Shown piece after piece: positions 1,403 through 63,696 of a stretch of DNA of 64,000 nt (within the stretch, counting starts at the first letter, position 1; each line of letters begins with the position of its first letter). The position numbers and the translations under genes were made by a program. The stretch is from contig CAYFOF010000003.1 of assembly GCA_964344655.1 (NCBI GenBank), positions 428-64,427 of the forward strand, written 5' to 3'. The notes beneath the pieces were generated by a model. It worked only from the letters and a program-made list of their open reading frames with translations, had not been told where the DNA came from and made no database searches. Source of the stretch: Candidatus Woesearchaeota archaeon. GTDB lineage: Archaea; Nanobdellota; Nanobdellia; SCGC-AAA011-G17; PNOQ01.

Positions 1403-1516
1403 TGGGCCTGACCGGATTTGAACCGGCGACCTCTGGTGTTCCTAGCATGCTATTGGATTATATCCAATAACCGTCATATAAGACCAGTGCTATAAACCAG
1501 ACTAAGCTACAGGCCC
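1403..1516 (-). tRNA. Intron-containing tRNA (about 114 nt); anticodon tentatively UAU (Ile) with a roughly 38-nt intron after position 37
   Basis: On the reverse complement: acceptor GGGCCTG/CAGGCCC plus discriminator A, and T-arm GCCGG-TTCAAAT-CCGGT. Anticodon stem CTGGT ... ACCAG is split by an insert that contains an internal TTGGAT/ATCCAA hairpin. The exon loop reads CTTATA|intron|C. Confidence 0.6.
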
Positions 1517-6200: not shown

Positions 6201-6279
6201 AAACATAACAACCAGATATGAATAATAGTGAGGATAACAGAAATATTACTGCCGATATTTGAAACTTATGTTGGATCAC
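3205..6279 (-). CDS. Large (1024 aa) secreted/lipobox surface protein with a C-terminal right-handed parallel beta-helix (PbH1/NosD-like) repeat region and a T/P/K-rich stalk
   Basis: N-terminal signal with lipobox-like LFISGC. Repeated N/D/G-x-I/V turns (DNTIINE, FDNNKIVG, NFNEISNN, TFSNNKI) typical of beta-helix repeats. C-terminal low-complexity TPSTKTGESITKTEEPVTKKVP. Overlaps the upstream subtilisin gene by 14 nt, so likely an operon. Confidence 0.7.
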   Translation of the reverse strand: MIQHKFQISAVIFLLSSLLFISGCYVSPYYNMAEEEYIEYYILKDVSDSTSTNLDFSQGELTHFNAKTNLLGAVSEDSIYTFLHLIDPFTGSITAVGSMGVLPYDRTSHLFSKTYNPDGTIEYFRPFNDDFTFLDVESRIWGYDEDDNFDNIYKEQYFEGPLDLGQTYNANFFSQILYFTEPYLNNTLGGEYALTLKSVLYPTEVNYVIIQDLKDRSMYPVLKEYINGVQVSTDEFDEYHHEKYRNPGEEIGELFTLTSGDTYSFNLHMPSYDDVRNYTIEGETTISSSKDYEFPHIEFIESESYYNSNQDKILKFRIIENNLGSQAQLSLNTYYKTDGSWIEIQPTINYPEVEVNLGQISSESISFRVDISLGESSIYYTIEPIAIKQREISDLDFAISSEDCIIDPVSPISTKCVLDLSGTCTDNLGANCGKLPFYFYVDGAKIIPIRFTHQEIDKDFFTSGDHELKVVYEGIPESAYPAGFESNTITLNFDEPGILITGNYEDYPIDTDGDGLYDYLAIDSDVQVTEPGYYHLTSQIYLGERDEITHSSHSEPSSGIYLIPGTHTLTSLHPGSNIYRAGLDGPYELVSMCAREETSRIHCGNFPFVTSSYKYSDFQHENIVAEFTGDYDYLIEDLNDDGKYELLKWNAEVEIYEEGEYSLSGHLRTPGGDIIYSFFNDGKQTLKPGTHTLKETFRGKEIYNSLGTGQYELVSIELKRTDGAYSYETVANDFPNVFTEHISHTDFDQTYCSEYNSEIEEITTDTWVCPKKYYLDNGVKILADNIKFNCHDAEINGIQNGAGIDLTQRSGVTIYGCTIKEYIVGINMYLSNDNIIKDNTIINELIGIGTKHSHDNIFDNNKIVGKDNPLVGLSIYNANNNEFNFNEISNNQRGVDISHLATGNTFSNNKICLNEMDMKCSVPESTFGSANRATINDGCTQVQTIACKDEETLPEIRDFPETLEDPEGIENPTIPIRDEETTPSTKTGESITKTEEPVTKKVPKLSSEKSIWQRIVDYLFSESI

Positions 6280-19500: not shown

Positions 19501-22500
19501 AAATCTCTTGCTCTGTCAATTAAATCATATAATTTTCCTATAAATTCTATTTTTGTTTGACGATCTCTTGGATCTATTCCTAGTGATTCGAATGCAAGGG
19601 ATTGGTATTCTTCTTCTGAATTATCATCTAATGTTTGTTGTATTTCGTTTCTTCTTTCTTGTTCTTGTGCTGGAGTATATTCATTATTTCTTTGAGCTTC
19701 TGCGATTACTTCTGATAAATTATATGAAGTATCATGTAATGATTGTTTTATTCCAGCAGAATAAAGATAGCAATTTCCTAGCTCTCTTCCTAAATCATCT
19801 TGTCCACAAGTTCCTACAAATTCCCATTCATCTCCCACACCATCGGGGTCGTATGCTGCACAAACTCTTTTTACTCCAGAAGTAAATAATCCAGGAACAT
19901 AACTTCTTTCTCTTGGAACACATTGTTCTGCAGTTTGGATATTATCGTTTAATGTTGATTTTATTAATTCATCTTTTAGATATTGAGTTGAGAATCCACT
20001 TGATGTACTTCCGAATCCACATTCTTGAATACCATCTATGATTATACACATTTCTACAAATCCTGGAGGTAAATTTGGAAGTGTGAAACTTTGATCTACA
20101 CTTTCTCCTCTTCTTAGGATTCTATCTCCTTGGAATAATCCAGGATCGTTAACTGTGATTGTTTGTCCGTTTATGTCTTTCAAAACTACTTTATACCTTA
20201 TGTCTTTATTTCTTCCAGCGTATATGTGATAGTAAATTCTGTATGTTGATTGCCCGGTTCCTATTGTAGCTTGAGTGTTTATGAAACCAGATTGTAAATT
20301 TACTTCTGAAGATCTATCTTCTTCAAACCATCCTGTGAATTGCGGTGGACTCTCTGGTGATGTTAATTGACCCAGTAGATCTCCTCCTGCGGGGGTTCTT
20401 CCGAATATTGCTTGTTTACAAAGTGTGCTTCCTACTTCGCTGGAGGTTCTTCCTCTGAATGCTGAGAATGCTGAAGATGCATAACTCTTTGTGAAAAAGT
20501 TTACAGAATCTCCAAGTCTACTCCAACTAGATTCCCATAATTTATATTCTCCTCCGCCGGATGAACCAAATACTGCTGTTGAGATGAAACTTTGTATCTT
20601 TCCAAAGACATTTACTAATGCTAAAGCTTCTTCCCATAAAATATTACACATGTATAAACTTCTTATTTCATTACAGATTCCTACAGATTCCCCACTTGTT
20701 TTGGCTACTTCTAGACAATCTCTGAAACTACCAAACATAGAATAGATGTTTTCTAATCCTGCATGTATTCCAGTTAAACAAATTGGAAGAATATCTCCAT
20801 TGCCCCATCCTAGTGTGATTGAACCAATGATTCCTTTTTGTACTACAGATCCTGCATCTCCCCCAAGATCCCATCTCCCTCCAAGATTAAATCTTGATGG
20901 CGGACACATTACAGGATCACAAACATTGTATAAAATTTTACAATCTGTAGAAGACATTGAATCTTCACATTGTCCATTTGGATCTAATCTTGATCCTATA
21001 TTTCCTTCGTATTGTTCAATTAATATGTCTTGACCGTTGAATTTTACTATTGATCCCTTGTCTTTTGTAGCTAGTGGAACTGCTTGTTGATATGTTCTTT
21101 CTATTTCATAAGCTAACCTATCATTTTCTTTTAATCTTGTATCTGGATGTAATTGTGTTGAGGACATTACTAGTTTATCATCTTCTGTGTCTGGAATTCC
21201 GTCTGAGCCAATATTCCATACTGAAAATCTATATCCTCCTCTTCTTTCTGCATTTTCATCTACTTGTATGTAGTTTGCAAAACTTAGTGATTCTTCTCCA
21301 CCATTATATTGGAATGGGATTAATGTTGGAGTGTTAGTTTCATCGTCGAAGTAAATTCTTGGAACTGTTGTATATTGAGTTAAGAAAGATCCTTCTGAAA
21401 GTCCGGCAAGGTAAATGTTTCCGTTTGCTTCATAAAAGTCTCCTCTGGTACTTGAAAGGATTTCACTTCCATCCATTATTGGGGTTACAGTTATTTTATT
21501 TCCTTCCGTATCTATTATGTATTTGTTATCTCCATCTGTGTAAAGCGGGAATGGGTTATTGTTTGGTCTGGAGATTATATCTCTTCCTTGAAGTGTTTGT
21601 TGTGCACGAGTGTCTTGATCTGTGAAGAATGCATTTGAAGGAGTTGTTAAAGAACCAGTTCCAACACTTAATCTGTATCTTAATTCAATTTCTTTTATTT
21701 CTTTATCAGAAAGTTCTTGATCTCCTATTTCTTCTCTTATTGATCGATCAATTTTATTTACTTTTTGTAGTTGTTCGTCAAAGTCTAAACTGCCGTCTTG
21801 CCAAACTTCTTCATCATACATTGATTCGTATAATTCTTGACCTGAAAGATCTCCGTATTTGTGTAATAATGTTAAGTTTGTTACATCCATGTTTAATCTT
21901 GTAGCTATTCCTTGTAAAGATTCTTCATCTTCAAAATCTACATCTTTGAATAATTCATCTAATTCGTTTTTTGTTCTTTGAGAAATTTCTACTCTTTCTT
22001 CTATTTCATTTTTAGCATCGTTGAAACAATTTATTGAGGCTTGAGTGTTAGTCCCGTGTACACTTTCACAGTCTTCTCTTACTCTATTTTCAATTAATCT
22101 TTTTGCAGGATTTGAAAAGAAAGCATTTTTTATTGTTAGTGCAGCAAATGTTGCATAACAAACTCCTTTCCAGGTTGAAATTATACTTCCTAGTCTATTT
22201 ATTATTCCGTCTAGTCTAGAAAGTGTTCTATCTGTTGAGGCAATCATCTTATCAATTTCTTCAGGAGTCCATTGCCATAATCTTTTTTCTATTGGCAAGT
22301 GAATTGTAAATTGAGAAGTTCCATAATTATCTCTTGTTCCTGGAGTTACAGTTATTATTGCACTTTCAACTACATCTATTTTATCTATGTAAATGAATCT
22401 AGATTGAGTACCGAAAGGAACTTGAGTTTTTTTGCCTATTTCTAATGTTCTTGTATTTGCTTCTGGTCTGTTTCTTGAATTTAATTCTGTGAATTCTTGT

Positions 22501-24017
22501 TGGATCACAACTTCATTTGAGCTTATTGAAGTTATTGCCCATCTATATTTATTTCCTGACTCGTCAATTATCTCTGGAGAAATGTATTCTCCGATTGTTC
22601 CTTCATCAAAATCGAAATTTATTATGCTATCATCAAAACTGTTTAATACAGCATAATTTACTTTACTTTGTTCTGCATCATCATCAATTGATATTAAAGT
22701 TATTAACATATCATCTGCTTTGACATAATTGTATTTGTTTTGTAATCTTAATTGAGAATTATCTAATCTTTCTTGATATTTTTCTTGCAATGAAGGATCT
22801 GCTTGTATTGCATTTAGTAAGAAAAGATTTGCTTTTTCTATTGAATTAAGACCTTCGTAAGCCTCAGAAATTTTTACATAGTATTCTGCTTCTTCTGTTG
22901 AAGTTTCTGCTAGTTGTAATGCAGATCTGTAATCTTCAATTGCTTGACAGTATAACTGAGTTGAAGAAGCAGCGCTTAATTGTTCACTTGGTAGATATCT
23001 GAAATTTGCACACGGATCTGAAATTTCACTTCCCTCTTCATATGCTATGAATAATTCATTTCCATCTGTGTCAACTATTATTAATCCGTCAGAAAATATT
23101 TCTTTTACAACCCATTCACTGTTTAATTTCATTCCAGCAACATAATCTTTTGTTGATGAAACAATTTCTTCTCCTAAATCTTCTTCAATTAGTAACCTTG
23201 CTTTGTTTTCGTTTTTACTTACTCTTTCTAGTTTTAGATTAATTCTACTTTCCAGTAAACTTGGAGCCCCTGGGAGTGTAACTTCTTTTGGTTCTCCTCC
23301 AGCTGTTAATTTAACTTGATTAGCAAATCCTATTTTTCTTTTATTTCCGTCGTATAATTGTACTCTTGCGGTGTTTCCATTTATTTCTATAACTCTTATG
23401 TACCCTCTTCCGCCCCATAAAGCACTATCTTTTAGTTCTTTGTTTAGCCATGCTTCTTCATCCTTTTGAGGAGCGAGATTGAAACTTTGTGTACTTAAAA
23501 CTCCAAATCCAGATTCAACATCAAAATAAATTCTTGCATCAACTTCAATTGTTATTTCTTCAGGAACTTTTTCTTCTAGTGGTTGACGTTTTAGTCTTAC
23601 AGTTGTGTATCCTAGATCTATGTTTCCATTTGCATCAACTACTAATTCTTCTCCTTTTGGTCTTACTAGAGAAGTTAATCCTCCTTGAATGTATTTACTT
23701 GATTCTCGGTTTGGGATTAAATCTATATGTTTAATTTTCATATCTCCGTAAAATGGAGCCCCCGCAGGAGATTGAGAATCACCGAATAATGCAGTGCCTA
23801 AAGTTTTACCAGAAAGAAATACGTGAACATTTGCTGCTCTGTGTTGGAATAAATCAGAAGTTATTGGAGTTGGGCTTACGTGATCTACGTTTATTGTAAG
23901 TGCTTCTCCTAAGTCTCTTGTGTCTCCTTCTATTGGATCGTTGTAATATCCAAAGGAAGTTACTGGAGTACTAACTATTAAAATTATACAAATTATTGCG
24001 TATATTGCTTTATTCAT
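16539..24017 (-). CDS. Giant secreted protein (2492 aa): about 1900 aa N-terminal region of unknown function followed by lytic transglycosylase (SLT), CHAP-like Cys/His peptidase and SGNH/GDSL hydrolase domains
   Basis: Signal peptide MNKAIYAIICIILIVSTPVTSFG. SLT motif AIMMHESGCDQ...GARGLMQIT (coding around 17.9-18.25 kb). CHAP-like Cys region WSGAFISYVMKNAGV and His region SGHCDVVTGV (around 17.3-17.6 kb). SGNH block I AIGDSITANGG and block V DGLHPN (16.54-17.14 kb). The start codon overlaps the stop of the upstream gene (ATGA). Confidence 0.85.
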   Translation of the reverse strand: MNKAIYAIICIILIVSTPVTSFGYYNDPIEGDTRDLGEALTINVDHVSPTPITSDLFQHRAANVHVFLSGKTLGTALFGDSQSPAGAPFYGDMKIKHIDLIPNRESSKYIQGGLTSLVRPKGEELVVDANGNIDLGYTTVRLKRQPLEEKVPEEITIEVDARIYFDVESGFGVLSTQSFNLAPQKDEEAWLNKELKDSALWGGRGYIRVIEINGNTARVQLYDGNKRKIGFANQVKLTAGGEPKEVTLPGAPSLLESRINLKLERVSKNENKARLLIEEDLGEEIVSSTKDYVAGMKLNSEWVVKEIFSDGLIIVDTDGNELFIAYEEGSEISDPCANFRYLPSEQLSAASSTQLYCQAIEDYRSALQLAETSTEEAEYYVKISEAYEGLNSIEKANLFLLNAIQADPSLQEKYQERLDNSQLRLQNKYNYVKADDMLITLISIDDDAEQSKVNYAVLNSFDDSIINFDFDEGTIGEYISPEIIDESGNKYRWAITSISSNEVVIQQEFTELNSRNRPEANTRTLEIGKKTQVPFGTQSRFIYIDKIDVVESAIITVTPGTRDNYGTSQFTIHLPIEKRLWQWTPEEIDKMIASTDRTLSRLDGIINRLGSIISTWKGVCYATFAALTIKNAFFSNPAKRLIENRVREDCESVHGTNTQASINCFNDAKNEIEERVEISQRTKNELDELFKDVDFEDEESLQGIATRLNMDVTNLTLLHKYGDLSGQELYESMYDEEVWQDGSLDFDEQLQKVNKIDRSIREEIGDQELSDKEIKEIELRYRLSVGTGSLTTPSNAFFTDQDTRAQQTLQGRDIISRPNNNPFPLYTDGDNKYIIDTEGNKITVTPIMDGSEILSSTRGDFYEANGNIYLAGLSEGSFLTQYTTVPRIYFDDETNTPTLIPFQYNGGEESLSFANYIQVDENAERRGGYRFSVWNIGSDGIPDTEDDKLVMSSTQLHPDTRLKENDRLAYEIERTYQQAVPLATKDKGSIVKFNGQDILIEQYEGNIGSRLDPNGQCEDSMSSTDCKILYNVCDPVMCPPSRFNLGGRWDLGGDAGSVVQKGIIGSITLGWGNGDILPICLTGIHAGLENIYSMFGSFRDCLEVAKTSGESVGICNEIRSLYMCNILWEEALALVNVFGKIQSFISTAVFGSSGGGEYKLWESSWSRLGDSVNFFTKSYASSAFSAFRGRTSSEVGSTLCKQAIFGRTPAGGDLLGQLTSPESPPQFTGWFEEDRSSEVNLQSGFINTQATIGTGQSTYRIYYHIYAGRNKDIRYKVVLKDINGQTITVNDPGLFQGDRILRRGESVDQSFTLPNLPPGFVEMCIIIDGIQECGFGSTSSGFSTQYLKDELIKSTLNDNIQTAEQCVPRERSYVPGLFTSGVKRVCAAYDPDGVGDEWEFVGTCGQDDLGRELGNCYLYSAGIKQSLHDTSYNLSEVIAEAQRNNEYTPAQEQERRNEIQQTLDDNSEEEYQSLAFESLGIDPRDRQTKIEFIGKLYDLIDRARDFEVIEKSHSLAAEHLITLAGYKKIEETQQEAQRKLDEQSAQCSIFYDADDSNSNSDRASFRYLFGTWEYKLEGPTNNEEWIKIYQNEDCNLIKNSKYATILSDVCEGLVGKDFSGGVKEIVETVNNPPGKDDDHITVHKGDNRKSKFESGGANILDILEFCGQEDSRATSEIRDQLAYSELTDKEIEIKVEPTSSNTQFRVNDGELSLKRPNQEWEDYEEVVFSPDFEEISLSPASYGIAQVIRENMNNWNKVIIEHKTGDKNKYDTFNGQNVVNGISPSRLAEWLYYAIYERVENGMQPFELDIKRAGNDLLIFDNDKTIHWNGFYVEKKGGISKKYYWWEGFETVLRAYVDSNTNINELEMKCENGIKFEKTTELNDFNKIISWIQTQATKCDSRGTTTVTGTGDVYGAIQYAKENVIGDRRCDCGNNCQLYAQYIDQYSEEKDIDPLLVLAIMMHESGCDQSATSNTGARGLMQITGTGFDDACSDGRVSGASSVDGLKTNTKANVQCGVYVLSNAYRYWGERENGMSFQKTCDGPTTTYNGWEAAVRGYAGYTCGHHPNYVEGVMEKYNVLKSKFGFASRNIITTQLESKNDIVDVAKAEYSAWGEGARKECDMQNKLQSYFSTTSTTNWDCEDTPWSGAFISYVMKNAGVSDFPVSGKHSVYFTELRDNPNEYSCKTNDISNINNIKPGDILCRVESGSTTYNTLTPDRSGHCDVVTGVSVDANNNVEEIERIGGNRWNTNCHPTNTNYGCTVAKTTDNIDKLNDRYYGFISCGTSTTNFKNTKQITNVLAIGDSITANGGYANHLKANLESYNINLDYRGYSSCGIDNIRLRLLGSEQTRDCAGGTVDSFNLNNYDTVLVFAGINDIPCEGNYETYANKLETIYSYLKAQGKTVIALTLTPAGRWYEERKNCEDVSDSVKIIKDINNWILTNNNVDFAVDVFTPLDDGNGYLKSEYDGDGLHPNSQAHAVIGGTTFMEVFR

Positions 24018-25987
24018 TGTACTTCTGGGTATATGAAATTTTGATTATTTGCATTTGCATTCATGTTATTGAAAACATCTAACATTTCTGATTGTGTTCT
24101 TGGAGTTTTATCATATGGGACGTAAACTGTTAGTTTATTTCTATTGAAAACATCAGCATACCATTCGTATGCAGCTCCGCCGACAATAACATCCGTTAGT
24201 GTTCCTCCATCAAATTCGGATTCAAAACATTTTTCTTCACTTGAGAATAATCCAAGTATTCCTGGACGTGGAACTTTTACACAACTTATTTCTGAATCGG
24301 ATTTAAGTTCTATGTTTGTATTTTCTTCAGTTAGTAAGTATGAAGTTACTTGGTAGTTTCCGTCGGTTAATTTTATTTCAGTGTCTTCATTTGTTACCAT
24401 AGTTATGTATCCATTATCTAGGTTTTCAAATTGTACTACCGCTTGTTTGTCATTTACGGAACTAGTGAATCCATCTCCAAGTTGAACTTCTTTTATTTCT
24501 AATTCTAGAGTGTAGTGTTTGTCTAGTAGAACTGTAGTTTCTTGATCTATGTTTGTTGAAATAAATTCTCCGCCAAGCTCATAGCCATCTTTTTGTGCAA
24601 TTATTGCACCGTTTAAACATGGAGGGAAGTTTGCATTTATTTTTCCTTGTTCATTTGTTTCTCCAATATAACAAGTAGATGTGAAACATTTGTATAGTAT
24701 ACTTGTATCTTCAATATCTCTGAATGTTTTGCTGTCATAAACTGTTACTTCCATTGGTTTTACTTTGTTTTCACAGAAATTATCTGTAAATTCATTTGAA
24801 TATTCTGTGTTGAATACTTCTCCCTCATATGCTCTTGGATTGTTGTTATCTATGATTACTGTTGTTGCGTATTGGAAAGTTAATCCAGTATTGTCGTCGG
24901 TTAATCCAATTAATACTGGGTATTTTACGTCGTAAACAAAATGGTAATTGTTTAAACAGAAAAATAAGTTTAGGAATTTACTTATCTCTGGAGTTTGTTG
25001 TGTTAGAGCATCTCCTACTAAAATTTCTCCTTTTGTTGGTGAGACATCCATAAACATTGGGAAGTCGGTTGAATAGGTGAATGATTCAGTTATATATTCG
25101 GGTTTTGTTATGTCTATTTCAAAATAATCTCTATTTGTTGGAAGATATGCAGATGAAGTTGGGTCTTTTAAGGTTAGGGCAGCTATGTTTGTGTTTGTTA
25201 TTGATTTAAGATCTTCTAGAACTCTTGATTTTTGCCAAACTTTTCTTTCACATGAAAACTCTGTTGTTGAATATGGAATTTCTTCGTATGTTGCCATTAG
25301 ATCAATTGTTTTTTCTTCTAGGAATAATTCTTCATTTTCTTTTTCCATAACTTCTTTTGCAAGATTGTATAGTTCTCCTAATTTTGAATCTGCTATTACC
25401 ATTAGTTTATCTATATCAGTATAAACTTCTTTTAGTGAAATTTGTAAATCAGAATTTAATTTTACTTGAACATTGTTTTGGTTTATTTTTACTTCTGAAG
25501 ATAATATTTCTGGATAGTTTATTGTGAATCCATCTTCTTCAAAACTTTGAGCAAAATATTCGCAGTTGTTGAAATTATTGTTTATGTATTCTTCAAGTTC
25601 TCTTTCCATTTCTTCTATAGTTGGAATTTGTTGTTGTTGGATTCCATTTGAGGTTTCATAAAACCAATATGCAACTTCATGGATTGAGTAAAGATTTAAT
25701 GTATTTGAGAATTCATCATTTATTGTTCTTTTGTAAGGTTCTTCTGGAAGGTTTATGTATCCTCCTTGAGAAGCTAAAATGTTTATTCCATCTTGAGTTA
25801 TTCCTTCTAAACATACATCAAAATAGTCTTTTGCGGGTCTTATTTGTTCTGGAATTATTATAGAATTCATCTCTGATTCAAAATCTTGTTCTAATATTTG
25901 AGATCTGAAGGAAAATAGTATTGTAAATACTGCTAAAATGACAATTCCTAGAATTATAAATACAGTAACTTGACCCCTCTTTTTCAT
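24014..25987 (-). CDS. Hypothetical 657-aa protein with an archaeal class III (type IV prepilin-like) signal peptide
   Basis: N-terminal MKKRGQVTVFIILGIVILAVFTILF: basic residues, Gly, then a 20-residue hydrophobic helix is typical of archaeal prepilin/archaellin signal peptides processed after the KRG. The rest is rich in T/N/E/Y with no motif recognized. The stop overlaps the start of the giant gene. Confidence 0.65.
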   Translation of the reverse strand: MKKRGQVTVFIILGIVILAVFTILFSFRSQILEQDFESEMNSIIIPEQIRPAKDYFDVCLEGITQDGINILASQGGYINLPEEPYKRTINDEFSNTLNLYSIHEVAYWFYETSNGIQQQQIPTIEEMERELEEYINNNFNNCEYFAQSFEEDGFTINYPEILSSEVKINQNNVQVKLNSDLQISLKEVYTDIDKLMVIADSKLGELYNLAKEVMEKENEELFLEEKTIDLMATYEEIPYSTTEFSCERKVWQKSRVLEDLKSITNTNIAALTLKDPTSSAYLPTNRDYFEIDITKPEYITESFTYSTDFPMFMDVSPTKGEILVGDALTQQTPEISKFLNLFFCLNNYHFVYDVKYPVLIGLTDDNTGLTFQYATTVIIDNNNPRAYEGEVFNTEYSNEFTDNFCENKVKPMEVTVYDSKTFRDIEDTSILYKCFTSTCYIGETNEQGKINANFPPCLNGAIIAQKDGYELGGEFISTNIDQETTVLLDKHYTLELEIKEVQLGDGFTSSVNDKQAVVQFENLDNGYITMVTNEDTEIKLTDGNYQVTSYLLTEENTNIELKSDSEISCVKVPRPGILGLFSSEEKCFESEFDGGTLTDVIVGGAAYEWYADVFNRNKLTVYVPYDKTPRTQSEMLDVFNNMNANANNQNFIYPEVQ

Positions 25988-26049: not shown

Positions 26050-27603
26050 TTATTTTCTCCATCTTCCTTTAATGATTGGAAGTGCTTGAACTAATCCTCC
26101 TTCATATAGTACCCCATTGCCCGCCATTGAAGTTGAAGGTTGTCCTAATTGATAATCTAAAGGTATTAATGAACTTGTTCCAACAGACATTGATCCTTTG
26201 CTTACTTCTAGTTGATGAACGTGCCCCATAATGACTTTTCCATAGGCTTCTATTAAACTTTTTAGTGAGCCTCTTCCGCCATTTTTTCCTTTGTGACCAT
26301 GGGCACCACATTGATATCCCCAATACATTGCGTCTTCACCAAGTCTTAGGAATCTTAGATTATTTGGGATTTTATTTTCAAAAAGTTTTCTTATTGCTAC
26401 TTCAAGTGCATTATCTTTAACAGAATTAAAAGATTCAGCCCCCAATATTCTGTGTGCCATTTTTCTATTTTGTGGATCACTTCTATAAGCTCCTTTTGCT
26501 AACCAACGATATAACATATCGTCATGATTGGAGTAGTTAACGATTACTTCACCTTTTCCTGCTCTTTTTGCTTTCTCTATTAGATATTCTCCAGTTTCAT
26601 AAAGCTCTTCTTCAAGACTTCTAACTCTTCTTTCATGTTTGTCTGTTTGTGCAACTTCGTCATCTAGTTCATGAAGATTTATTGATTGAGCACTGAATGC
26701 GTCGTGAATGTGTATGTGTTCTGGAGCAAAATAATCTATCATTTCGTTGTTTGCTTCATCTGTTTCTGGATCTAATTCAGAAACGTGGGAATCTCCAAGA
26801 ACTAAAGCAACTGTTTTTGCTTTGTGGGGTTTTACTCCTTTTGCGTACTTTATTCCTAAATCTATAAATGTTCCATTTGCTTGAGCAGGAACTATTCTTG
26901 GAAGGTATAATTTTTCATCTAAAACATCAACAACTACAAATCCAAATTCATGCTCTTCATCAGCATCATATCCCCTTCTATTTGTAGTGTTATAACTTGG
27001 ATGAGTGCAACATCCTGTCGTTAACATTAATTTTGGGTATTCTCCAGATTGTCCTTTTGCTACAGGAGTTAATACTTGTTTTGGGCTTGGCATAACAATT
27101 GAACTTCCGCCGTGTTTTTTTGTATATTTTCCTTTCCCAGTTAAAGGATTTTGATTTTGAGAGGGTTCTGGAACCGCTATTAGTCGTACATTTGTATTTA
27201 ATCTTTCTCCCGTTGTTTCATAATTAGTATTTGGCATTTCATTCCAAAAAAAATGCATTGGCATTTTTGGAGATCTTCCTTTTTCTCTCCAATTATCTCT
27301 CTTTTCTTGTTCTCTTTCTTTTTGCATTTCTAATCTGCCTTTTGCATTACTTTCCATATATACATCATCTCTTTTGTGGAAAAATGGATGTAATTCAATT
27401 TCATTAACGTAAGATCCGGGAATTGCACAAATTCTTAATTCCCCTTCGTTATCTCGAACATATCTTTCTAAATTTTTTATAAGTGGTAAATTTGGAGCAC
27501 CTTTAGAAGAATCTCTTCCATAGTGTTCAGCAGAATGAGGATTTTGAATGCCTTGCGCAGCAGTTATAGCAATAGTTTTAGTTTTAGAATTATCACCCTC
27601 CAT
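26050..27603 (-). CDS. Two-domain protein: N-terminal region of unknown function plus C-terminal calcineurin-like metallophosphoesterase domain
   Basis: Phosphoesterase motifs LGDSHV (GDxH), HIHDAF, YSNHDD (GNHD/E-like) and GHVHQ (GHxH) in residues about 260-470. 517 aa. Confidence 0.7.
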   Translation of the reverse strand: MEGDNSKTKTIAITAAQGIQNPHSAEHYGRDSSKGAPNLPLIKNLERYVRDNEGELRICAIPGSYVNEIELHPFFHKRDDVYMESNAKGRLEMQKEREQEKRDNWREKGRSPKMPMHFFWNEMPNTNYETTGERLNTNVRLIAVPEPSQNQNPLTGKGKYTKKHGGSSIVMPSPKQVLTPVAKGQSGEYPKLMLTTGCCTHPSYNTTNRRGYDADEEHEFGFVVVDVLDEKLYLPRIVPAQANGTFIDLGIKYAKGVKPHKAKTVALVLGDSHVSELDPETDEANNEMIDYFAPEHIHIHDAFSAQSINLHELDDEVAQTDKHERRVRSLEEELYETGEYLIEKAKRAGKGEVIVNYSNHDDMLYRWLAKGAYRSDPQNRKMAHRILGAESFNSVKDNALEVAIRKLFENKIPNNLRFLRLGEDAMYWGYQCGAHGHKGKNGGRGSLKSLIEAYGKVIMGHVHQLEVSKGSMSVGTSSLIPLDYQLGQPSTSMAGNGVLYEGGLVQALPIIKGRWRK

Positions 27604-33867: not shown

Positions 33868-34521
33868 TTATTGTTTTTCTGCAAAATGTTTTTCAATATA
33901 AAATCTTAGTAATTGCTCTGCTTCTGGGATACAGTTTTTATCTTGCACTCCAATTTTTGTTCTTTTTTGAAGCTCTTCAAATGTTCTTACTCCCTCTAAA
34001 ACAGCTTCTTCAATGTCATGGTCAGTAATTCTTAAAGTTTTATCAATTACTTTAACTCCAGATCTTCGTATTCTATCATATTGTTCAGTTCTTTCATAGT
34101 AATCATTAACTGCTGCTCTTAATGCTTTGTCTGCCAATACAGAACAGTGATATTTATTTGTTGGAAGTCCATCTAGTCTTGATACTATGTCTTGCGGTTT
34201 AACTTCTAACGCTTGTTCTAGTGTCATTCCGCCATTTTCTGTAATCATTTCTGAAAATATTGAAGTTGATGCAATTGCAGATGCGCATCCAAATGTTTGC
34301 CATTTACATTCTGTTATTCGTTCTTGATCATTAACTTTAATCCACATCTTCATCATATCTCCGCATGCAGCAGAACCTTCTATTCCAACACCGTTTGCTT
34401 CCGAAGCATATTTTGTGGCTTCATCTTGGCTTGTAATTAAATTTCTTGGGTTGAAGAAATGATCTTTAACTTTTTCAGAGTAGATCCATTCTTGACCGTC
34501 CCTTGTAAATCCATCACTCAT
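33868..34521 (-). CDS. iscU: Fe-S cluster assembly scaffold, IscU/NifU N-terminal-domain protein with C-terminal extension
   Basis: Three conserved scaffold Cys: GSAACGD, FGCASAI, plus a downstream Cys/His region. 217 aa. Overlaps iscS by 4 nt. Confidence 0.75.
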   Translation of the reverse strand: MSDGFTRDGQEWIYSEKVKDHFFNPRNLITSQDEATKYASEANGVGIEGSAACGDMMKMWIKVNDQERITECKWQTFGCASAIASTSIFSEMITENGGMTLEQALEVKPQDIVSRLDGLPTNKYHCSVLADKALRAAVNDYYERTEQYDRIRRSGVKVIDKTLRITDHDIEEAVLEGVRTFEELQKRTKIGVQDKNCIPEAEQLLRFYIEKHFAEKQ

Positions 34522-38326: not shown

Positions 38327-39121
38327 TTAGGATTTATCCCAAACTAATCCAAATAAGTTATCTAATGCTCCTGCAAAGTATGGTGCATCTACCCAAATTC
38401 CTAAATCATACGTTGGGTGTACATCTTTATCATCCATTACCATGAACATTACTTCTTTTCCGTCAACTATACAAAATCTTGCATCTAGGTTATTTATTCC
38501 TTTTAATTTTGCAAATTTTTTGACATCTTTTACTTGTTCGTGGTCTGCTCCTTCGGTTGGAGCGGCAATTCTAACTTTTACACCTTTTCTGCTTAGCTTA
38601 GAAAGAGTTGGTTGAAGTGCTTCAACTTTTCTTAGAACACCTTTTGAAGTAGTCATTATTGTTACAGAATCATTTGCTCTTTTGATCATTGTTTCTAAGT
38701 GATCGTAGATATTATGTCTTCCTTTTATTGCACCAGAAAGATCTGCTGGTTCAACGTATTCAACACCTTGGCTGAATAAAGTATTTAATTCTGTTAGAAC
38801 ATCATTATTGTTTAAGTCTTTTAGTTTTTGTAAGTTTTTGTCTGCATCTAATTTTACAGATTTTTTTAATCTTTCAACAACTTCTTTTGGTTCAACTGCT
38901 AAATATTGTATTGGTTTTCCAACTTTCAATGTAACGAAACCTTTCTTTTCTAAAGATTCTAGAACATCGTAAGCTCTTGATCTTGGAACTTCACCAATTT
39001 CAGAAAGTTCTCCAGCTGTTGATTTTCCCCTCGATAACAAGGCTGTCCAGATTCTAACCTCATATAAATTAAGTCCAAAAAATTGTCTCAGTTTTGTAAG
39101 AAACTCATCTTTAACTATCAT
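38327..39121 (-). CDS. TrmB-family transcriptional regulator
   Basis: N-terminal winged helix LYEVRIWTALLSRGKSTAGELSEIGEVPRSRAYDVLESLEKKGFV plus a C-terminal TrmB-type domain. 264 aa. Confidence 0.75.
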   Translation of the reverse strand: MIVKDEFLTKLRQFFGLNLYEVRIWTALLSRGKSTAGELSEIGEVPRSRAYDVLESLEKKGFVTLKVGKPIQYLAVEPKEVVERLKKSVKLDADKNLQKLKDLNNNDVLTELNTLFSQGVEYVEPADLSGAIKGRHNIYDHLETMIKRANDSVTIMTTSKGVLRKVEALQPTLSKLSRKGVKVRIAAPTEGADHEQVKDVKKFAKLKGINNLDARFCIVDGKEVMFMVMDDKDVHPTYDLGIWVDAPYFAGALDNLFGLVWDKS

Positions 39122-41073: not shown

Positions 41074-41475
41074 ATGGATTGTATTTTTTGTAAGATTGTG
41101 AAGGGAGAAGTTCCTTGTAATAAAGTTTATGAGGATGATGAAGTTTTTGCTTTTTTAGATATTAATCCTGTTTCTGCTGGACATACTTTAGTTATTCCTA
41201 AAGAACATTATGAAAATATTTACGATATTCCTGAAGAAGTATTAGGGAAAATTGCAATTGTTGCCAAAAGATTGGCTTTAGTTTATCGAGATAAATTGGG
41301 GATTGAAAATGTTAATATTTTAAATTCTAATGGATCTGCTGCACAGCAAGATGTGTTTCATTATCATATGCATATTATTCCAAGAAGAAAAGGAGATGGG
41401 ACATTATTTAAATGGAATAAGGAAGAAGTTGATTTTGATGCTTTTTTGAAAAAGTTGGGAGAAGTAAAAATATGA
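41074..41475 (+). CDS. HIT-family nucleotide hydrolase
   Basis: Histidine triad FHYHMHIIP; 133 aa. Confidence 0.85.
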   Translation: MDCIFCKIVKGEVPCNKVYEDDEVFAFLDINPVSAGHTLVIPKEHYENIYDIPEEVLGKIAIVAKRLALVYRDKLGIENVNILNSNGSAAQQDVFHYHMHIIPRRKGDGTLFKWNKEEVDFDAFLKKLGEVKI

Positions 41476-41999
41476 AAAAAATTATCCAAGGATTAAGTGT
41501 TACTAAGAATTATTTAGATAAAAAAATTAAATGGGATAAATTAACTGAAATTTTAGATGCTATAAGATATGCTCCAAGTTCTGGAGATTTACAAAATTGG
41601 AAAGTTGTTGTTGTGGATGATTTAGAAACTAAAAAAGAATTAGCTAAGTTTTCTTATGATCAAACATGGATTGCAAAATCTTCTGTTGTTTTGGTTATTT
41701 GTAATGATCAGTCTGAAGTTAAAAGGATGTTTAAGAATAAAGCGGATTTTTATTCTACACAAAATTGTGCAGCGGGAATTCAAAATATGTTACTGAGAGC
41801 TACATCTTTAGGAATTGATAGTGCGTGGATTAGAACATATAACGCCGATAGAATTAAAGGATTGTTAAAAATTCCTGAAGATATAAAGATTGACGCTTTG
41901 ATTACTTTGGGTTATGCAAAAAAAAGAGAAAGTAAAGCAAGAGTCAATGAATTAAAAAATATTGTTTATTTTAGAGAGTGGGGAAAGAGTGAGTTATAA
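41472..41999 (+). CDS. Nitroreductase-family protein
   Basis: AIRYAPSSGDLQNWKVVVV and a flavin-binding-like C-terminal half; 175 aa; 4-nt overlap with the HIT gene. Confidence 0.75.
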   Translation: MKKIIQGLSVTKNYLDKKIKWDKLTEILDAIRYAPSSGDLQNWKVVVVDDLETKKELAKFSYDQTWIAKSSVVLVICNDQSEVKRMFKNKADFYSTQNCAAGIQNMLLRATSLGIDSAWIRTYNADRIKGLLKIPEDIKIDALITLGYAKKRESKARVNELKNIVYFREWGKSEL

Positions 42000-42428
42000 T
42001 CCGGTAGAACCGAAATTGTTTTCTCCTCTTTCTGTTTCATCTAATTCTTGAACTTCTTCAATTGGAAAATGATTTGCAACTGGTTGTATTAGTATTTGAG
42101 CAATTCTCATTCCTTTTTCTACTTTAAATATTTCACTTCCTAAATTCTTTACTACAATTCCAACTTCTCCTCGATAATGAGAATCTATTACTCCTGCCAT
42201 AATATGTATTGCATTTTTGTAAGCTAAACCACTTCTGTCCCAAATTAAGCCAACATGATTATTTGGAATGTCCATCTTTAATCCAGTTTTTACTAATCTA
42301 TGTTCTCCGGGATGAATTTCATAATCTTCTACTGAAGATAAATCTAAACCCGCATCTCCTTGTTTTGCAAATTTTGGTATTATTGCGTCATCATGTATTT
42401 TTTTGAATTTTATTTTCATCCTCCGCAC
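41994..42428 (-). CDS. dut: dUTP diphosphatase (dCTP deaminase/dUTPase superfamily)
   Basis: GDAGLDL motif plus beta-rich trimeric dUTPase-like sequence; 144 aa; overlaps the 3' end of the RNR gene. Confidence 0.8.
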   Translation of the reverse strand: MRRMKIKFKKIHDDAIIPKFAKQGDAGLDLSSVEDYEIHPGEHRLVKTGLKMDIPNNHVGLIWDRSGLAYKNAIHIMAGVIDSHYRGEVGIVVKNLGSEIFKVEKGMRIAQILIQPVANHFPIEEVQELDETERGENNFGSTGL

Positions 42429-45400
42429 CCCCCTACTTTATCTCCGCAAGTACATTCATAACATCCGGGACCGGTTTGTTTCATTGTTCTGCCGCATCTG
42501 CATGTAACTCCTGTTGAAGCTGTTTTTTTCTTAGATTTAGTTTTGCCGTTTTTTCCTTTTGTAAAACCGCCGGTTTCAGAATCTTCTAAAACATCATCTA
42601 TTTCCCATTCATTAATGTCTTTTCTTTCTAAATATCTAAATGAGCCACTACCTTCGCCTCTTAATTTTGAAACATCAACTTTCTCCGGTTCTTGTGCAAC
42701 GGATGTGTCCCCTAAATACTCTATTCTTAGTATTTTTTGTGCTGCATCAAATATAGAACTTGCTTGTTTTACGTGTTCATTATCAAAGACCAACCCTCTT
42801 GGTTCCATTGTATGGCCTTTCCAAGAATCTAATATTACTTCTAATGGTGTTCCAGTTTTTAGAGATTTTGATGCTTGAATCCCGGCAACTTTTAATACAC
42901 TATTTAGTGTGGTTCCACCATCATAAGCTAAAAGAGCTATTTGTCCAGGCAATCCTGTTTCAGGATATTCACTTGTAATTAGGTGTACGGGGGTTTCTCC
43001 AATTTTAAATTCCCATTCATACGCTTGTCTACTTGTTGGGAGATCTACTTTTTCGCCCCAAGAAGGCTGGTTTAAACTTCTATCCTCCCCAAACGATAAA
43101 GCATATGATAATTTGCTATTAGACCTAAATGCTGCTACCGCCTTTAAACCATGTTCGTGAGATTGAATTAGGCCATCATAAATTTCTTTTACTGTAGTAT
43201 GTTCTGGGAAATTATTTGTTTTTGAAATAGCCCCAGATATGAATGGTTGCATTGCACCTAGCATTTTTACATGTCCCAGGAAAGGAATACTTCCTTCTCC
43301 ACTTATGTTTCCTAATGCTGTTTCGAAAACTTTGTGATGTTCTGGTTTTAAATCTAAAGATCCTAGTGTTGTTCCATGTTCAGCAATGTGAGAAGATATT
43401 TTTGTTATGTCTTCTTCATTATATCCAAGATTTCTTAATCCATTTGGAATTTCTTTATTTGATTCTAGGTTTAAACTTCCCCCGCCTGCGAGATCTTTTT
43501 TTATTGAAAAAGCTATGTAGGGTTCTGGCCCAGTAGTTTCACAACCAAGTAAATAAGAAATTGTTCCCGTTGGTGCAAGAACAGAAACTTGAGAATTTCT
43601 AAATCCAGTTTTATTCCCTTTTGTTTCTGCTACATCCCAAGAAGAATATGCTGCCTCTTTAATATTTTCTGGAATAGAATCCCAAACTATATCATCTAGA
43701 CTTTTTTTATGTTTTTTAATAACATCCATCATTGGATTTTTATTAAACTCAAAATGTTCAAATGTACCTATACTTTCTGCCAAATTTGCAGAAGTTTGGT
43801 ATGCTGTACCAGTCAATAATGCAGTTATTGAAGCAGCAAATTGCCTTCCTTCATCTGAATCATATGGCAATCCTTTTCTCATCAAAACAGCACCTATGTT
43901 TGCATAACCTAGTCCAATATTATTTAATTCTGGACTTATTTGGGCAACACTTCTTATAGGATACCCAGAAGATTGATTTAATATGTTTTGCCCAGTTGCC
44001 ATAATGTTTACAGCATATTGAAATCCTTCAACATCAAAATTTCCTTCTAAGTCTGTAAATTCTAATAAATTTAGTGATGCTAAGTTACATGCTGTGTCAT
44101 TTATTGACATATATTCTGAACAAGGATTACTAGAATTTATTCTTCCAGAGTTTTTTACAGTGTGCATTCTTTGAATTGTATCTTCAAATTGTGCTCCTGG
44201 GTCTCCCGTTCTCCAAATACCAAAAGAAATCTCTTTAAGCATTCTGTCTGCGGAAATTTCATCAACTATTTCTCCATTTTTTATATTTCTTAATTCAATA
44301 TTTCCTCCATTTCTTACTTGTTCAAAGAAATGATCATCTAACCTGACAGAAATATTTGTATTTTGATAATCTACAGATGTTACTGCTGGTCCATCCATCC
44401 CTCCCTCATAGCCTGCACGCATTAAAGCTAGAGTTTTTTTCTCTTCTCCAACTTTGGATCTTATGAATTTCATAACATCTGGATGGCCTTGCCGCATTGT
44501 TGTCATTCTTGCTGCACGTCTGCTCTTTCCACCAGATTTTATTGTTCCTGCCCAAACATCATATCCTTTCCAAAAACTTAATGGTCCAGAAGATTCTCCA
44601 CCACAAGATAAAGATTCTCCTTCTGCTCTTAATACTCCAATATCTTGACCAATCCCAGATCCAGATTCAAAAATATCAATTTCATGAACAGCGTGTTGTG
44701 CTATGCTTGTTAAATCATCTTGAGGTCCAGCAATAAAACATGCATGATTTTGGGGTCTAATGTTTCCCCCTTCTTCTATTTCTTCTACATCTCCTGTTTC
44801 TGGATTTCTCCAATGTTTTGTAGTTCCATTTCCTTCAATTCCATATTCTGAATATAATCCTGCATTAAATTGTACTGGAGAATTAAATGCTGCTTTCCTA
44901 TTAGCCATCAACCATAATAATTCATCTCTAAATATTTCTTTGTCTTCAGTAGAAGAAAAATATCCAAACTCTTCACCTGAATCGGCTATGTAATTTGCAA
45001 CCCTTGTCCATATATGTTTTACTGAGTTTTCGTGATTGTTTCCTATTATTGCTTCTAATTTTCTTGTTTCTTCTTCTCCTTTTGGAACATAAGCATATTT
45101 GCTCATTACAACTGTTGCATCATTATCTGACCAAGAAGAAGGCACTTCTGCGTCTTCCATATCAAATATAATCTCTCCCTCTTTGTCTTTATTAGTTAAA
45201 TGTCTTATTTCGTATGGCCCAATTGTATCAAGAGGGTTTGTTGTACCATCAGTATTATATCTTTGAAAGCTGATTCCTTGGGGATTTTCATTTGTTTGAT
45301 GGAATAGTCTTCCTAAAGCTAACCTGTCTACGTAAAGGTCATTTCCTTTTTCCAAAGTAATTACGTCTCCCGAACTAACCGCATCTTCTAATCTTGAAAC

Positions 45401-45556
45401 GCCATTAGCTAAATAAGGATTTGTTGTACTTTCTGAAGAAATTAAAGATCTTGCATCATCCAAACTTATGTGTCTTTCTGGGTCATATATGTTTAATCTT
45501 GATCCTGAAGGATCGTACATAGGACTATCATTAGAATTTATTTTTACTTTACTCAT
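42416..45556 (-). CDS. nrdJ: Ribonucleotide reductase, class II (adenosylcobalamin-dependent, NrdJ-like) with C-terminal Cys-rich zinc ribbon
   Basis: Active-site NPCSEY...CNLASLNL, ten-stranded-barrel RNR-like length (1046 aa), C-terminal CRCGRTMKQTGPGCYECTCGDKVGGCGG tail. No glycyl-radical motif. Confidence 0.8.
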   Translation of the reverse strand: MSKVKINSNDSPMYDPSGSRLNIYDPERHISLDDARSLISSESTTNPYLANGVSRLEDAVSSGDVITLEKGNDLYVDRLALGRLFHQTNENPQGISFQRYNTDGTTNPLDTIGPYEIRHLTNKDKEGEIIFDMEDAEVPSSWSDNDATVVMSKYAYVPKGEEETRKLEAIIGNNHENSVKHIWTRVANYIADSGEEFGYFSSTEDKEIFRDELLWLMANRKAAFNSPVQFNAGLYSEYGIEGNGTTKHWRNPETGDVEEIEEGGNIRPQNHACFIAGPQDDLTSIAQHAVHEIDIFESGSGIGQDIGVLRAEGESLSCGGESSGPLSFWKGYDVWAGTIKSGGKSRRAARMTTMRQGHPDVMKFIRSKVGEEKKTLALMRAGYEGGMDGPAVTSVDYQNTNISVRLDDHFFEQVRNGGNIELRNIKNGEIVDEISADRMLKEISFGIWRTGDPGAQFEDTIQRMHTVKNSGRINSSNPCSEYMSINDTACNLASLNLLEFTDLEGNFDVEGFQYAVNIMATGQNILNQSSGYPIRSVAQISPELNNIGLGYANIGAVLMRKGLPYDSDEGRQFAASITALLTGTAYQTSANLAESIGTFEHFEFNKNPMMDVIKKHKKSLDDIVWDSIPENIKEAAYSSWDVAETKGNKTGFRNSQVSVLAPTGTISYLLGCETTGPEPYIAFSIKKDLAGGGSLNLESNKEIPNGLRNLGYNEEDITKISSHIAEHGTTLGSLDLKPEHHKVFETALGNISGEGSIPFLGHVKMLGAMQPFISGAISKTNNFPEHTTVKEIYDGLIQSHEHGLKAVAAFRSNSKLSYALSFGEDRSLNQPSWGEKVDLPTSRQAYEWEFKIGETPVHLITSEYPETGLPGQIALLAYDGGTTLNSVLKVAGIQASKSLKTGTPLEVILDSWKGHTMEPRGLVFDNEHVKQASSIFDAAQKILRIEYLGDTSVAQEPEKVDVSKLRGEGSGSFRYLERKDINEWEIDDVLEDSETGGFTKGKNGKTKSKKKTASTGVTCRCGRTMKQTGPGCYECTCGDKVGGCGG

Positions 45557-45557
45557 T

Positions 45558-46010
45558 TTATTCCCCCTTTCTTAAATTATTAACCATATCTTCAAACGAA
45601 TCTATGTCTGTGAAATCTTTGTACACAGATGCAAATCTTACGTAAGCAACTTTATCCAGTTTTTTTAGTTTTCTCATGACTAATTCTCCAATTATTTTTG
45701 AATGAACTTCTGGAGTATCATTGCTTCTTAGTTCGTTTTCTATTTCTGTGAATGTTTTTTGAAGTTGTTCTGTTGAAACTGGTCTTTTTTCACATGCCCT
45801 TATTATTCCTTTTTTTAGTTTGTCTCGGTCAAAAATTACTCTTTCGCCAGATTTTTTGACAACTCTTAAATCTAAGGTTTCTATTCTTTCGTGTGTTGTA
45901 AACCTTTTTTCGCAATCATTACATTCTCGTCTTCTTCTTACTGCTTCTTCAGAATGATCCCTCTTATCAACTACTTTCATAGATTGGCTATTACAGAACG
46001 GACACCTCAT
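45558..46010 (-). CDS. nrdR: NrdR transcriptional repressor (zinc ribbon plus ATP-cone)
   Basis: MRCPFCNSQSMKVVDKR...CNDCEKRFTTHE zinc ribbon followed by an ATP-cone. 150 aa. One nucleotide separates it from nrdJ. Confidence 0.85.
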   Translation of the reverse strand: MRCPFCNSQSMKVVDKRDHSEEAVRRRRECNDCEKRFTTHERIETLDLRVVKKSGERVIFDRDKLKKGIIRACEKRPVSTEQLQKTFTEIENELRSNDTPEVHSKIIGELVMRKLKKLDKVAYVRFASVYKDFTDIDSFEDMVNNLRKGE

Positions 46011-46011
46011 T

Positions 46012-46060
46012 TTTCAATATGTTGTGGTAGTTACATGTTTTTTGACACAATATATTGTGT
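46012..46060. promoter_or_regulatory. NrdR operator: perfect 16-bp NrdR box ACACAATATATTGTGT (46045-46060) plus a degenerate second box (46012-46027)
   Basis: Box 1 is a perfect palindrome matching the published NrdR-box consensus acaCwAtATaTwGtgt. It lies 35-50 nt upstream of the nrdR start on the minus strand, where an archaeal TATA box/TSS would sit. Box 2 matches 11 of 16 positions, centred about 33 bp away. Confidence 0.6.
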
Positions 46061-46166
46061 TTTACTCACAACAACCTATTTTTTAGGATTTAGGTTTATA
46101 AATATTTAGTAAGTTTGGTGTATAGATTATCAAAACTTTTATATTTGGTTTAGTGTTTGTGAAATT

Positions 46167-46391
46167 ATGGTAGATAGTTATAAAGAAACTCAAAATATGG
46201 ATAGATATACTATGATTTTAGGATATTACATGGAAAATCCAGGAAGAATAGAGAATAATTCTGAACTTTTAGATCAGGCAATTGATGAAATCGATAAAGA
46301 AATGGATAGTTTGGGATTTCCAGAAGATGTAAAGTTAGATTTTTATGAAGAATTTGATCCTGTTATTAATTGGAGAAAATACGTTAATTAA
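46167..46391 (+). CDS. Small hypothetical protein (74 aa)
   Basis: ORF preceded by the ggtttataaatatt promoter-like element at 46091-46104; no motif. Confidence 0.3.
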   Translation: MVDSYKETQNMDRYTMILGYYMENPGRIENNSELLDQAIDEIDKEMDSLGFPEDVKLDFYEEFDPVINWRKYVN

Positions 46392-46481
46392 AAAAACAAG
46401 GGAAGGAGTTAGACTCCTCCCAAAAAAATTCTAAAGTAGTGAGTCAACTTATGGGGGTTAAAATGAATGGAGTTAATCCCA

Positions 46482-63120: not shown

Positions 63121-63696
63121 ATGAAATTAGAATATGATTATGGAGCATTAGAGCCATATATAGATGAAGAAACAATGAAAATACATCATGATAAACACTA
63201 TCATGCTTATTATGATAATTTTATGAAAGCAATCACAGGAACTGAATTAGAAGAAAAAGATGTAAAAGAAATATTATCAGATTTAGATTCGATTCCAGAA
63301 GAAATTAAAACTGCTGTTGTAAATAATGGTGGAGGATATTTTAATCACAGATTTTTCTGGACAATATTAAAGAAAGATGTTCCCTTTGAAGGAGAGATTG
63401 CCGAAGCAATAAAAGAGAAATTTGATAATTTTGAAGAGGAATTTAGTAATGCGGCTACAACTCAATTTGGAAGTGGATGGGCTTGGTTAGTTTTAGATGA
63501 TGGAGAATTAAAAATTATAAAAACTTCAAATCAAGAATCTCCAATTAGTAAAGGAATGATTCCTTTATTGACTATTGATGTTTGGGAGCATGCGTATTAT
63601 TTGAAATATCAAAATAAAAGACCAGATTATGTTAAGAATTTTCTTAATGTGATAAACTGGAAAAAAGTAAATGAATATTATATGGAGGCAAAATAA
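63121..63696 (+). CDS. sod: Fe/Mn superoxide dismutase
   Basis: KHHDKHYHAYYDNF and DVWEHAYYL metal-ligand motifs. 191 aa. GGAGG SD upstream. Confidence 0.9.
   Translation: MKLEYDYGALEPYIDEETMKIHHDKHYHAYYDNFMKAITGTELEEKDVKEILSDLDSIPEEIKTAVVNNGGGYFNHRFFWTILKKDVPFEGEIAEAIKEKFDNFEEEFSNAATTQFGSGWAWLVLDDGELKIIKTSNQESPISKGMIPLLTIDVWEHAYYLKYQNKRPDYVKNFLNVINWKKVNEYYMEAK

Follow-up and report, generated by a model that had tools for sequence, protein, structure and literature searches.

Tandem predicted NrdR boxes upstream of an nrdR–nrdJ–dut gene string in a Woesearchaeota-like DPANN archaeon

A 64 kb stretch of DNA, hereafter the window, carries the genes nrdR, nrdJ and dut one after the other on the minus strand, preceded by two predicted binding sites for the repressor NrdR and by a predicted archaeal promoter (Table 1). 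The window is archaeal and comes from a Woesearchaeota-like DPANN genome, because it encodes both GatD and GatE, contains a tRNA suggestive of an intron, has transcription factor B recognition element (BRE)/TATA promoters throughout and is closest to a Candidatus Woesearchaeota metagenome-assembled genome (MAG; locus L002). In that genome NrdR is 91% identical and the same gene order, ftsZ ... nrdR–nrdJ–dut, is found. The tRNA, of 114 nt at 1403–1516 (minus strand), was detected by Rfam and not reported by ARAGORN; an intron in it is probable and would suit an archaeal genome. A metagenome contig identical to the window was also recovered (L001). A bacterial-type NrdR, a tandem operator and an nrdR–nrdJ–dut string are present together in this archaeal genome, as an earlier note on the same DNA had claimed.

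Family-profile scores agree with the identities given to the three genes in the earlier note, namely nrdR, a class II nrdJ with a Zn-ribbon tail, and a trimeric dUTPase. NrdR matches TIGR00244 over its full length, with PF22811 (Zn_ribbon_NrdR) at residues 1–41 and PF03477 (ATP-cone) at residues 49–135, and matches the solved E. coli NrdR structures with E = 1e-38. We assessed its Zn-ribbon by residues taken from PMC9110341 (two CxxC motifs, RRRR, D15 and R17), and all are kept: C3/C6 and C30/C33, R25–R28, and the base-reading D15 and R17. In the ATP-cone, the nucleotide-contact residues were checked using Streptomyces coelicolor numbering (K50, R51, E56, K62, F124, V127 and Y128). K52, K53, K64 and the RFASVY motif are present; K53 is an arginine-to-lysine change relative to S. 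coelicolor R51, and lysine also occupies this position in most archaeal and many bacterial sequences. The residues of both domains are largely intact, with V58 (see below) departing, and the ATP-cone, whose degeneracy the earlier note had named as a reason for doubt, does not appear degenerate. NrdJ is the only reductase encoded in the window. It scores 442 bits against TIGR02504 and 854.8 bits against NF005122 (cutoff 859), the latter matching through the end of the Cys-rich tail, and contains the Pfam domains Ribonuc_red_2_N and Ribonuc_red_lgC; a Pfam scan of the protein did not find the ATP-cone (PF03477).

The three genes are tightly packed. The junction between nrdR and nrdJ is TAA-A-ATG, confirming the 1-nt gap given in the earlier note, with a GGGGG Shine-Dalgarno sequence at 45563–45567. 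The 13-nt nrdJ–dut junction given there is an overlap that applies to the GTG start at 42428 called by the open reading frame (ORF) finder; we prefer the ATG at 42419, with which the overlap is 4 nt (ATGA). The 1-nt gap and Shine-Dalgarno sequence before nrdJ and the ATGA before dut would fit co-transcription, and no TATA heptamer was found at the usual distance upstream of nrdJ. The gene string ends at dut, the 3' end of which overlaps a convergent nitroreductase gene (41472–41999, plus strand) by 6 nt. Linkage of dut to nrdR, or to a string of nrdR and a ribonucleotide reductase (RNR) gene, was seen in several archaeal loci and one bacterial (Eremiobacterota) locus (L025, L032, L013, L028 and L002), so that a dUTPase gene in an NrdR-linked string is recurrent and not unique to the window.

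Table 1. Genes and predicted regulatory features of the nrdR–nrdJ–dut locus (window coordinates)
Feature	Position	Strand	Description
nrdR	45558-46010	-	150 aa; Zn-ribbon and ATP-cone repressor family; TIGR00244, 187.8 bits (cutoff 124.65)
nrdJ	42416-45556	-	1046 aa; class II adenosylcobalamin (B12)-dependent ribonucleotide reductase, long form, Cys-rich C-terminal tail
dut	41994-42419 (ATG) or 42428 (GTG)	-	141/144 aa; trimeric dUTPase; TIGR00576, 156.5 bits; PF00692
NrdR box 1 (predicted)	46045-46060	.	ACACAATATATTGTGT; perfect 16-bp palindrome with all six conserved positions
Linker between boxes	46028-46044	.	CAAAAAACATGTAACTA; 17 bp
NrdR box 2 (predicted)	46012-46027	-	CCACAACATATTGAAA; ends 2 nt before the nrdR ATG
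nrdR operon BRE/TATA (predicted)	46093-46107	-	AAATATTTATAAACC; TATA octamer TTTATAAA at 46095-46102
nrdR transcription start region (predicted)	46070-46075	-	TATA start plus ~29 nt, the spacing of 20 leaderless genes

Both NrdR boxes described in the earlier note, a perfect 16-bp palindrome upstream of nrdR and a weaker second site about 33 bp away near the ATG, were recovered. The palindrome, box 1, is the only perfect copy in the window, and allowing up to three mismatches adds one match (6917), which is the level expected by chance. Box 2 has 11 of the 16 plain consensus letters, yet C4, A6, A8, T9, T11 and G13 are all present. These six positions were found to be highly conserved in a 2026 mutational study, in which C4 and G13 were essential and two boxes were needed for NrdR binding (PMC13584703); the pair is therefore the relevant unit. 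From the same study we took our criteria for a box: the six conserved positions, at least 63% AT between C4 and G13 (box 1, 8/8; box 2, 7/8) and the requirement for two boxes. A count of plain 16-letter consensus matches was rejected as too noisy, with 25 matches of at least 12/16 in the window and box 2 itself at only 11/16, and was replaced by the six experimentally important positions together with the spacing of the pair. Single 16-mers with the six core positions occur 29 times in the window, so that a lone box is weak evidence. The pair upstream of nrdR is the only one with a spacing of 28–45 bp in the 64 kb, compared to 0.03 expected from first-order Markov simulations.

The two boxes lie 33 bp apart from start to start, approximately three helical turns. 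Their 17-bp linker falls inside the 14–17 bp "short spacer" class, and linkers bound tightly in vitro range over 14–18 bp for L. monocytogenes NrdR, 15–18 bp for E. coli and 15–17 bp for S. coelicolor (PMC12051234). In L002 the boxes read ACACAAGATATTGTGT and CCACAACATGTTGAAA, respectively, each with a sole change at a non-conserved position (7 in box 1 and 10 in box 2), and 4 of the 17 linker positions differ from the window. The boxes stand upstream of nrdR itself, which implies autoregulation.

To place the boxes relative to a promoter, we used the other genes of the window as a reference. Of 29 genes, 20 have a [TC]TTA[AT]A[AT] heptamer that starts 27–32 nt ahead of the ATG, usually after an A-rich BRE, implying that most would be transcribed as leaderless mRNAs with ~29 nt from TATA to start. 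A GGGGG or GGAGG Shine-Dalgarno sequence is found at internal or leadered genes (nrdJ, ftsZ, 38327–39121, 33868–34521 and 63121–63696). For nrdR, the sole heptamer within 120 nt upstream starts at −92 (46102), 42 nt before box 1 starts. It belongs to the predicted BRE/TATA element 34 bp upstream of box 1, which is letter-for-letter the promoter of gene 6266–8677 and is kept in L002. Position −30 of nrdR is part of the inter-box linker, where the sequence is not TATA-like, and no TATA-like sequence was found within −50 to −2; the claim that the operator sits where TATA/BRE would be is therefore not borne out. With the spacing of the leaderless genes, nrdR transcription is predicted to start near 46073, giving a leader of ~63 nt that holds both boxes. 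On this numbering box 1 would occupy roughly +13 to +28, box 2 would follow at +46 to +61, and the ATG would come at around +63. Most likely, judging from these spacings, the operator lies downstream of TATA, at or just after the start site, and not on TATA/BRE.

The tandem arrangement recurs in other archaea. Our genome scan yielded 28 archaeal nrdR loci, or 29 with the window included, mostly from Woese-, Pace-, Aenigm- and Micrarchaeota and "Nanoarchaeia", in addition to many bacterial loci. With one mismatch allowed per box, a tandem pair was found within 200 nt upstream of nrdR in 14 of the 28 archaeal loci, compared to a background of 16 pairs in 268 kb. With two mismatches per pair, it was found upstream of nrdR or an RNR gene in 23 of 29, including L012, where the pair stands before the first gene, a reductase, of an RNR–x–nrdR string. 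The motif is thus strongly enriched upstream of nrd operons in related archaeal genomes, where the earlier note had held that its absence would speak against an NrdR operator. Box spacing in the archaeal loci is 31–33 bp, almost always 31–32 bp, and linkers are mostly 15–16 bp. A1, A3 and T14 are conserved in the archaeal boxes though they were not used for selection, and the archaeal consensus is the bacterial consensus. Ten large ORFs adjoining archaeal nrdR genes were tested, and every one was a ribonucleotide reductase: four class III NrdD, five with the Ribonuc_red_lgC barrel and an ATP-cone, and a tenth (L004) that matched only the ATP-cone and the class II B12-RNR insertion domain. Because tandem boxes precede the nrdR–RNR operon in 23 of 29 loci, the predicted NrdR regulon is conserved in these archaea and is not a one-off.

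Promoter geometry in the relatives follows a common order of TATA, then box 1 at or beside the predicted start, then box 2. Of 23 related loci, 20 have a TATA heptamer 15–45 nt before box 1, compared to 7.5% of random positions. The common TATA-to-box-1 distances are 23–27 and 32–35 bp, which would place the predicted start inside or just before box 1, and many relatives carry a Shine-Dalgarno sequence between box 2 and the ATG, as fits leadered transcripts. When the window and L002 are included, the distances group at 23–27, 32–35 and 42 bp, in steps of about one helical turn. These groups might reflect phasing of the operator with TATA, though ~20 loci are too few to decide.

Among described systems, the nrdRJ operon of S. 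coelicolor comes closest (PMC9110341). As in that operon, nrdR lies directly upstream of a class II nrdJ that encodes the long form with a Cys-rich tail, and nrdR is preceded by a pair of partially palindromic 16-bp boxes at a distance of about three helical turns; D15, R17, RRRR and RFASVY are identical in the two NrdRs. The differences are that the host is an archaeon with BRE/TATA in place of sigma-70 −35/−10 promoters, that the predicted boxes lie in leader DNA downstream of TATA, that dut is added to the operon, that the linker is 17 bp instead of 15 bp, and that valine replaces E56 and lysine replaces R51. An nrdR gene beside a ribonucleotide reductase in an archaeal genome is also found in the haloarchaeal nrdR–nrdAB and nrdR–nrdBA operons acquired from bacteria; these encode class I enzymes, lie in some cases on plasmids and have been interpreted as recent transfers (PMC3019208). 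Unlike these, the window has a class II enzyme, a DPANN host and host-like composition, and its layout is common to Woese-, Pace-, Aenigm- and Micrarchaeota MAGs, beside both class II and class III reductases. Some archaeal repressors, among them MDR1, Phr, LrpA and TrmB-type regulators, bind at or just downstream of TATA and block recruitment of RNA polymerase. In most DPANN nrdR promoters the predicted operator has a similar position, just downstream of BRE/TATA and on or next to the predicted start. Unlike those repressors, NrdR is a Zn-ribbon/ATP-cone tetramer that acts on two sites and sharply bends DNA.

Taken together, we consider it probable (roughly 0.72) that the locus is an autoregulated nrdR–nrdJ–dut operon of a Woesearchaeota-like DPANN archaeon that works as follows. 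Transcription from the BRE/TATA element would begin near 46073, and the ~63 bp of leader DNA would carry both boxes. By analogy with the solved bacterial complexes (PMC9110341), NrdR would read the dATP/ATP ratio through its ATP-cone, and a rise in dATP would lead to an NrdR tetramer with its two pairs of Zn-ribbons on both boxes and the DNA sharply bent. The bound tetramer would then block either recruitment of the archaeal RNA polymerase by TATA-binding protein (TBP) and transcription factor B (TFB) or escape of the polymerase from the promoter. Box 1 would lie at the downstream position predicted above in the window and directly on the predicted start in most relatives. Synthesis of the repressor, the window's only reductase and the dUTPase would drop together. 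Because NrdJ has no ATP-cone of its own here, NrdR may be the main dATP feedback on the supply of deoxyribonucleoside triphosphates (dNTPs). What the analysis shows are the sequences, the identities of the genes, the statistics of the motif and its conservation among archaeal loci; we infer the start site, the co-transcription, the mode of repression, NrdR binding to the box pair and its control by nucleotides.

Several observations weigh against this reading. In S. coelicolor, E56 makes contact with the adenine of the ATP at the inner site; its counterpart in the window NrdR is a valine (V58), with a glutamate two residues earlier. V58 is also present in L002, and some betaproteobacterial NrdRs likewise have no glutamate at the E56 position. 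With 17 bp, the linker stands at the margin of what is usual, 1 bp over the common 15–16 bp. At 42 bp, the distance from TATA to box 1 in the window and L002 is the longest of the set (typically 23–35 bp), and box 1 is therefore further from the predicted start than in the relatives. The predicted ~63-nt nrdR leader has no Shine-Dalgarno sequence before the ATG, unlike the other leadered or internal genes of the window. A pair was missing from 6 of 29 archaeal loci at two mismatches per pair. Lastly, our literature search found no experimental evidence of NrdR function in any archaeon.

The main alternative for the position of the promoter, in keeping with the promoter occlusion suggested in the earlier note, is that the AT-rich centre of box 1 (AATATATT, 46049–46056) is itself the TATA element, with a start near 46027 and NrdR competing with TBP/TFB. 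A start close to the ATG would suit a genome in which most genes are leaderless or short-leadered and an nrdR gene that has no Shine-Dalgarno sequence; with TATA at −46 to −39 the leader would be ~17 nt long, and the operator, spanning −50 to −2, covers the normal TATA zone of this genome. We nevertheless regard this as unlikely. AATATATT mismatches the genome's heptamer, which starts at −27 to −32 in 20 of 29 genes, and the canonical BRE/TATA 34 bp upstream of box 1 is conserved in L002. In the relatives, a separate heptamer 15–45 nt upstream of box 1 (20 of 23 loci) and, in many, a Shine-Dalgarno sequence after box 2 imply leadered transcripts starting further upstream.

In another alternative, NrdR binds the pair yet acts differently in the archaeal setting: only as an elongation roadblock, or as a nucleotide-dependent activator or an architectural factor, without blocking initiation. 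In the window, box 1 (+13 to +28) and box 2 (+46 to +61) are both predicted to lie past the core region of initiation, which would agree with this, and the grouping of TATA-to-box-1 distances near 24, 33 and 42 bp hints at helical phasing with TATA. Yet box 1 covers or abuts the predicted start in most relatives. This is where archaeal repressors that block polymerase recruitment usually sit. Every characterised NrdR, moreover, is a repressor (PMC9110341), and we judge a different mode of action to be improbable. Still further down in likelihood, and in our view very improbable, is that the archaeal NrdR no longer acts on the palindrome, which would have arisen by chance, form a hairpin in RNA or serve some unrelated regulator. 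Chance matches are to be expected in an AT-rich genome (31% GC), as the 29 single core 16-mers illustrate; a pair, however, is expected only 0.03 times per window, and 23 of 29 archaeal loci have the tandem layout before an nrdR or RNR gene. An explanation at the RNA level was also rejected: the predicted fold of the leader RNA does not stand out from those of shuffled sequences (z = 0.14), and Rfam gives only tRNAs in the window, with no riboswitch or other RNA element at the nrdR leader.

The earlier note had regarded NrdR in an archaeon as an anomaly, a bacterial invention. This view is outdated, as the literature already places NrdR in "some archaea" and reports it in 22% of archaeal genomes (PMC13584703). 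Haloarchaeal nrdR–nrdAB operons were described in 2010 (PMC3019208), another study mentions "a few archaeal RNRs" under NrdR control (PMC12051234), and a 2025 preprint states that NrdR is absent from archaea, so that the papers conflict, with archaeal NrdR variously "absent", "rare" or in "22% of genomes". A literature search combining NrdR with the names of DPANN lineages, limited in coverage, found no paper. Recent horizontal transfer was considered and rejected, as the GC content and the GC content at third codon positions (GC3) of nrdR, nrdJ and dut match those of ftsZ, gatD, gatE and the ligase gene, and their GC3 also matches that of the neighbouring genes. A neighbour-joining tree of 80 NrdRs groups the archaeal sequences together, with candidate phyla radiation (CPR) and Elusimicrobia sequences nested among them; the tree is rough, built without support values from a 150-residue protein with sampling biased toward the query. 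Neither composition nor tree suggests recent transfer, and we draw from the tree no inference on the direction or number of transfers.

The nrdR–nrdJ–dut locus is a sound annotation of an arrangement that is well studied in bacteria and common to many related archaea, and is not a surprise. Work on NrdR has been almost wholly bacterial, partly because of its interest as an antibacterial target, with its archaeal occurrence noted in passing. Many DPANN archaea carry the full set of repressor, tandem boxes and target reductase operon, and what is added here is the recurring layout of BRE/TATA, box 1 and box 2 across them. We tentatively offer a broader interpretation that may well not hold, in which DPANN archaea have kept an NrdR regulon that is long-standing rather than newly acquired, with its operator refitted to TATA distances of ~24, 33 or 42 bp, NrdR being the sole dATP feedback where NrdJ lacks an ATP-cone. 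The preferred distances may then mean that the operator is kept on one helix face, with box 1 covering or abutting the start. If the proposed regulation is correct, NrdR would also control dUTP removal, and as a repressor that senses nucleotides it would act on the TBP/TFB/RNA polymerase machinery in a manner new to study. The locus provides a concrete case for how a tetrameric, DNA-bending, nucleotide-sensing repressor of bacterial type could work on archaeal transcription machinery. It also improves the annotation of dNTP control in very small genomes, and overturns nothing known.

Several minor observations were made on the archaeal loci and on the surroundings of nrdR. NrdRs with Thr14 (KVTDKR/KVTNKR) pair with ATAC...GTAT boxes instead of ACAC...GTGT, and those in which Glu replaces Asp15 (VxETR/VLESR) pair with ACACTA... 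boxes (L004, L007, L010 and L039, and L027, L028, L029, L037, L046, L058 and L079). Protein–DNA co-variation of NrdR and its box is possible; the Thr14 group forms one clade in the rough tree, leaving few independent events. Two MAGs labelled "Methanosarcinales" (L007 and L016) have 29–30% GC and DPANN-like nrdR–RNR loci, and their labels may be binning or naming errors. A same-strand ftsZ directly upstream of nrdR was found in the window and L002 and in two clostridial loci (L026 and L043); this adjacency in an archaeon and in Clostridia may be coincidence or an old linkage.

Directly after the ftsZ stop, a GC-rich hairpin (GGGAGGAGTCTAACTCCTTCCC) followed by a T-run (46395–46440, minus strand) resembles an intrinsic terminator and is kept upstream of nrdR in L002; in the window it is common to a convergent 74-aa ORF (46167–46391, plus strand). 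This ORF lies between the hairpin and the nrdR promoter, points away from nrdR, has no Pfam or NCBIfam match and has upstream of it a BRE/TATA of the canonical leaderless type (AAAACTTTTATAT), with its heptamer at −29. L001 contains the ORF and the 91%-related L002 lacks it, the ftsZ–nrdR gap of L002 being 213 nt compared to 471 nt in the window; this looks like a small lineage-specific insertion or deletion. Elsewhere in the window, a 2492-aa ORF (16539–24017, minus strand) is followed in the same direction by 24014–25987 and 26050–27603, both without a family match. The window further encodes an S8 peptidase-like and a NosD-repeat protein (3205–6279 and 6266–8677, both on the minus strand).

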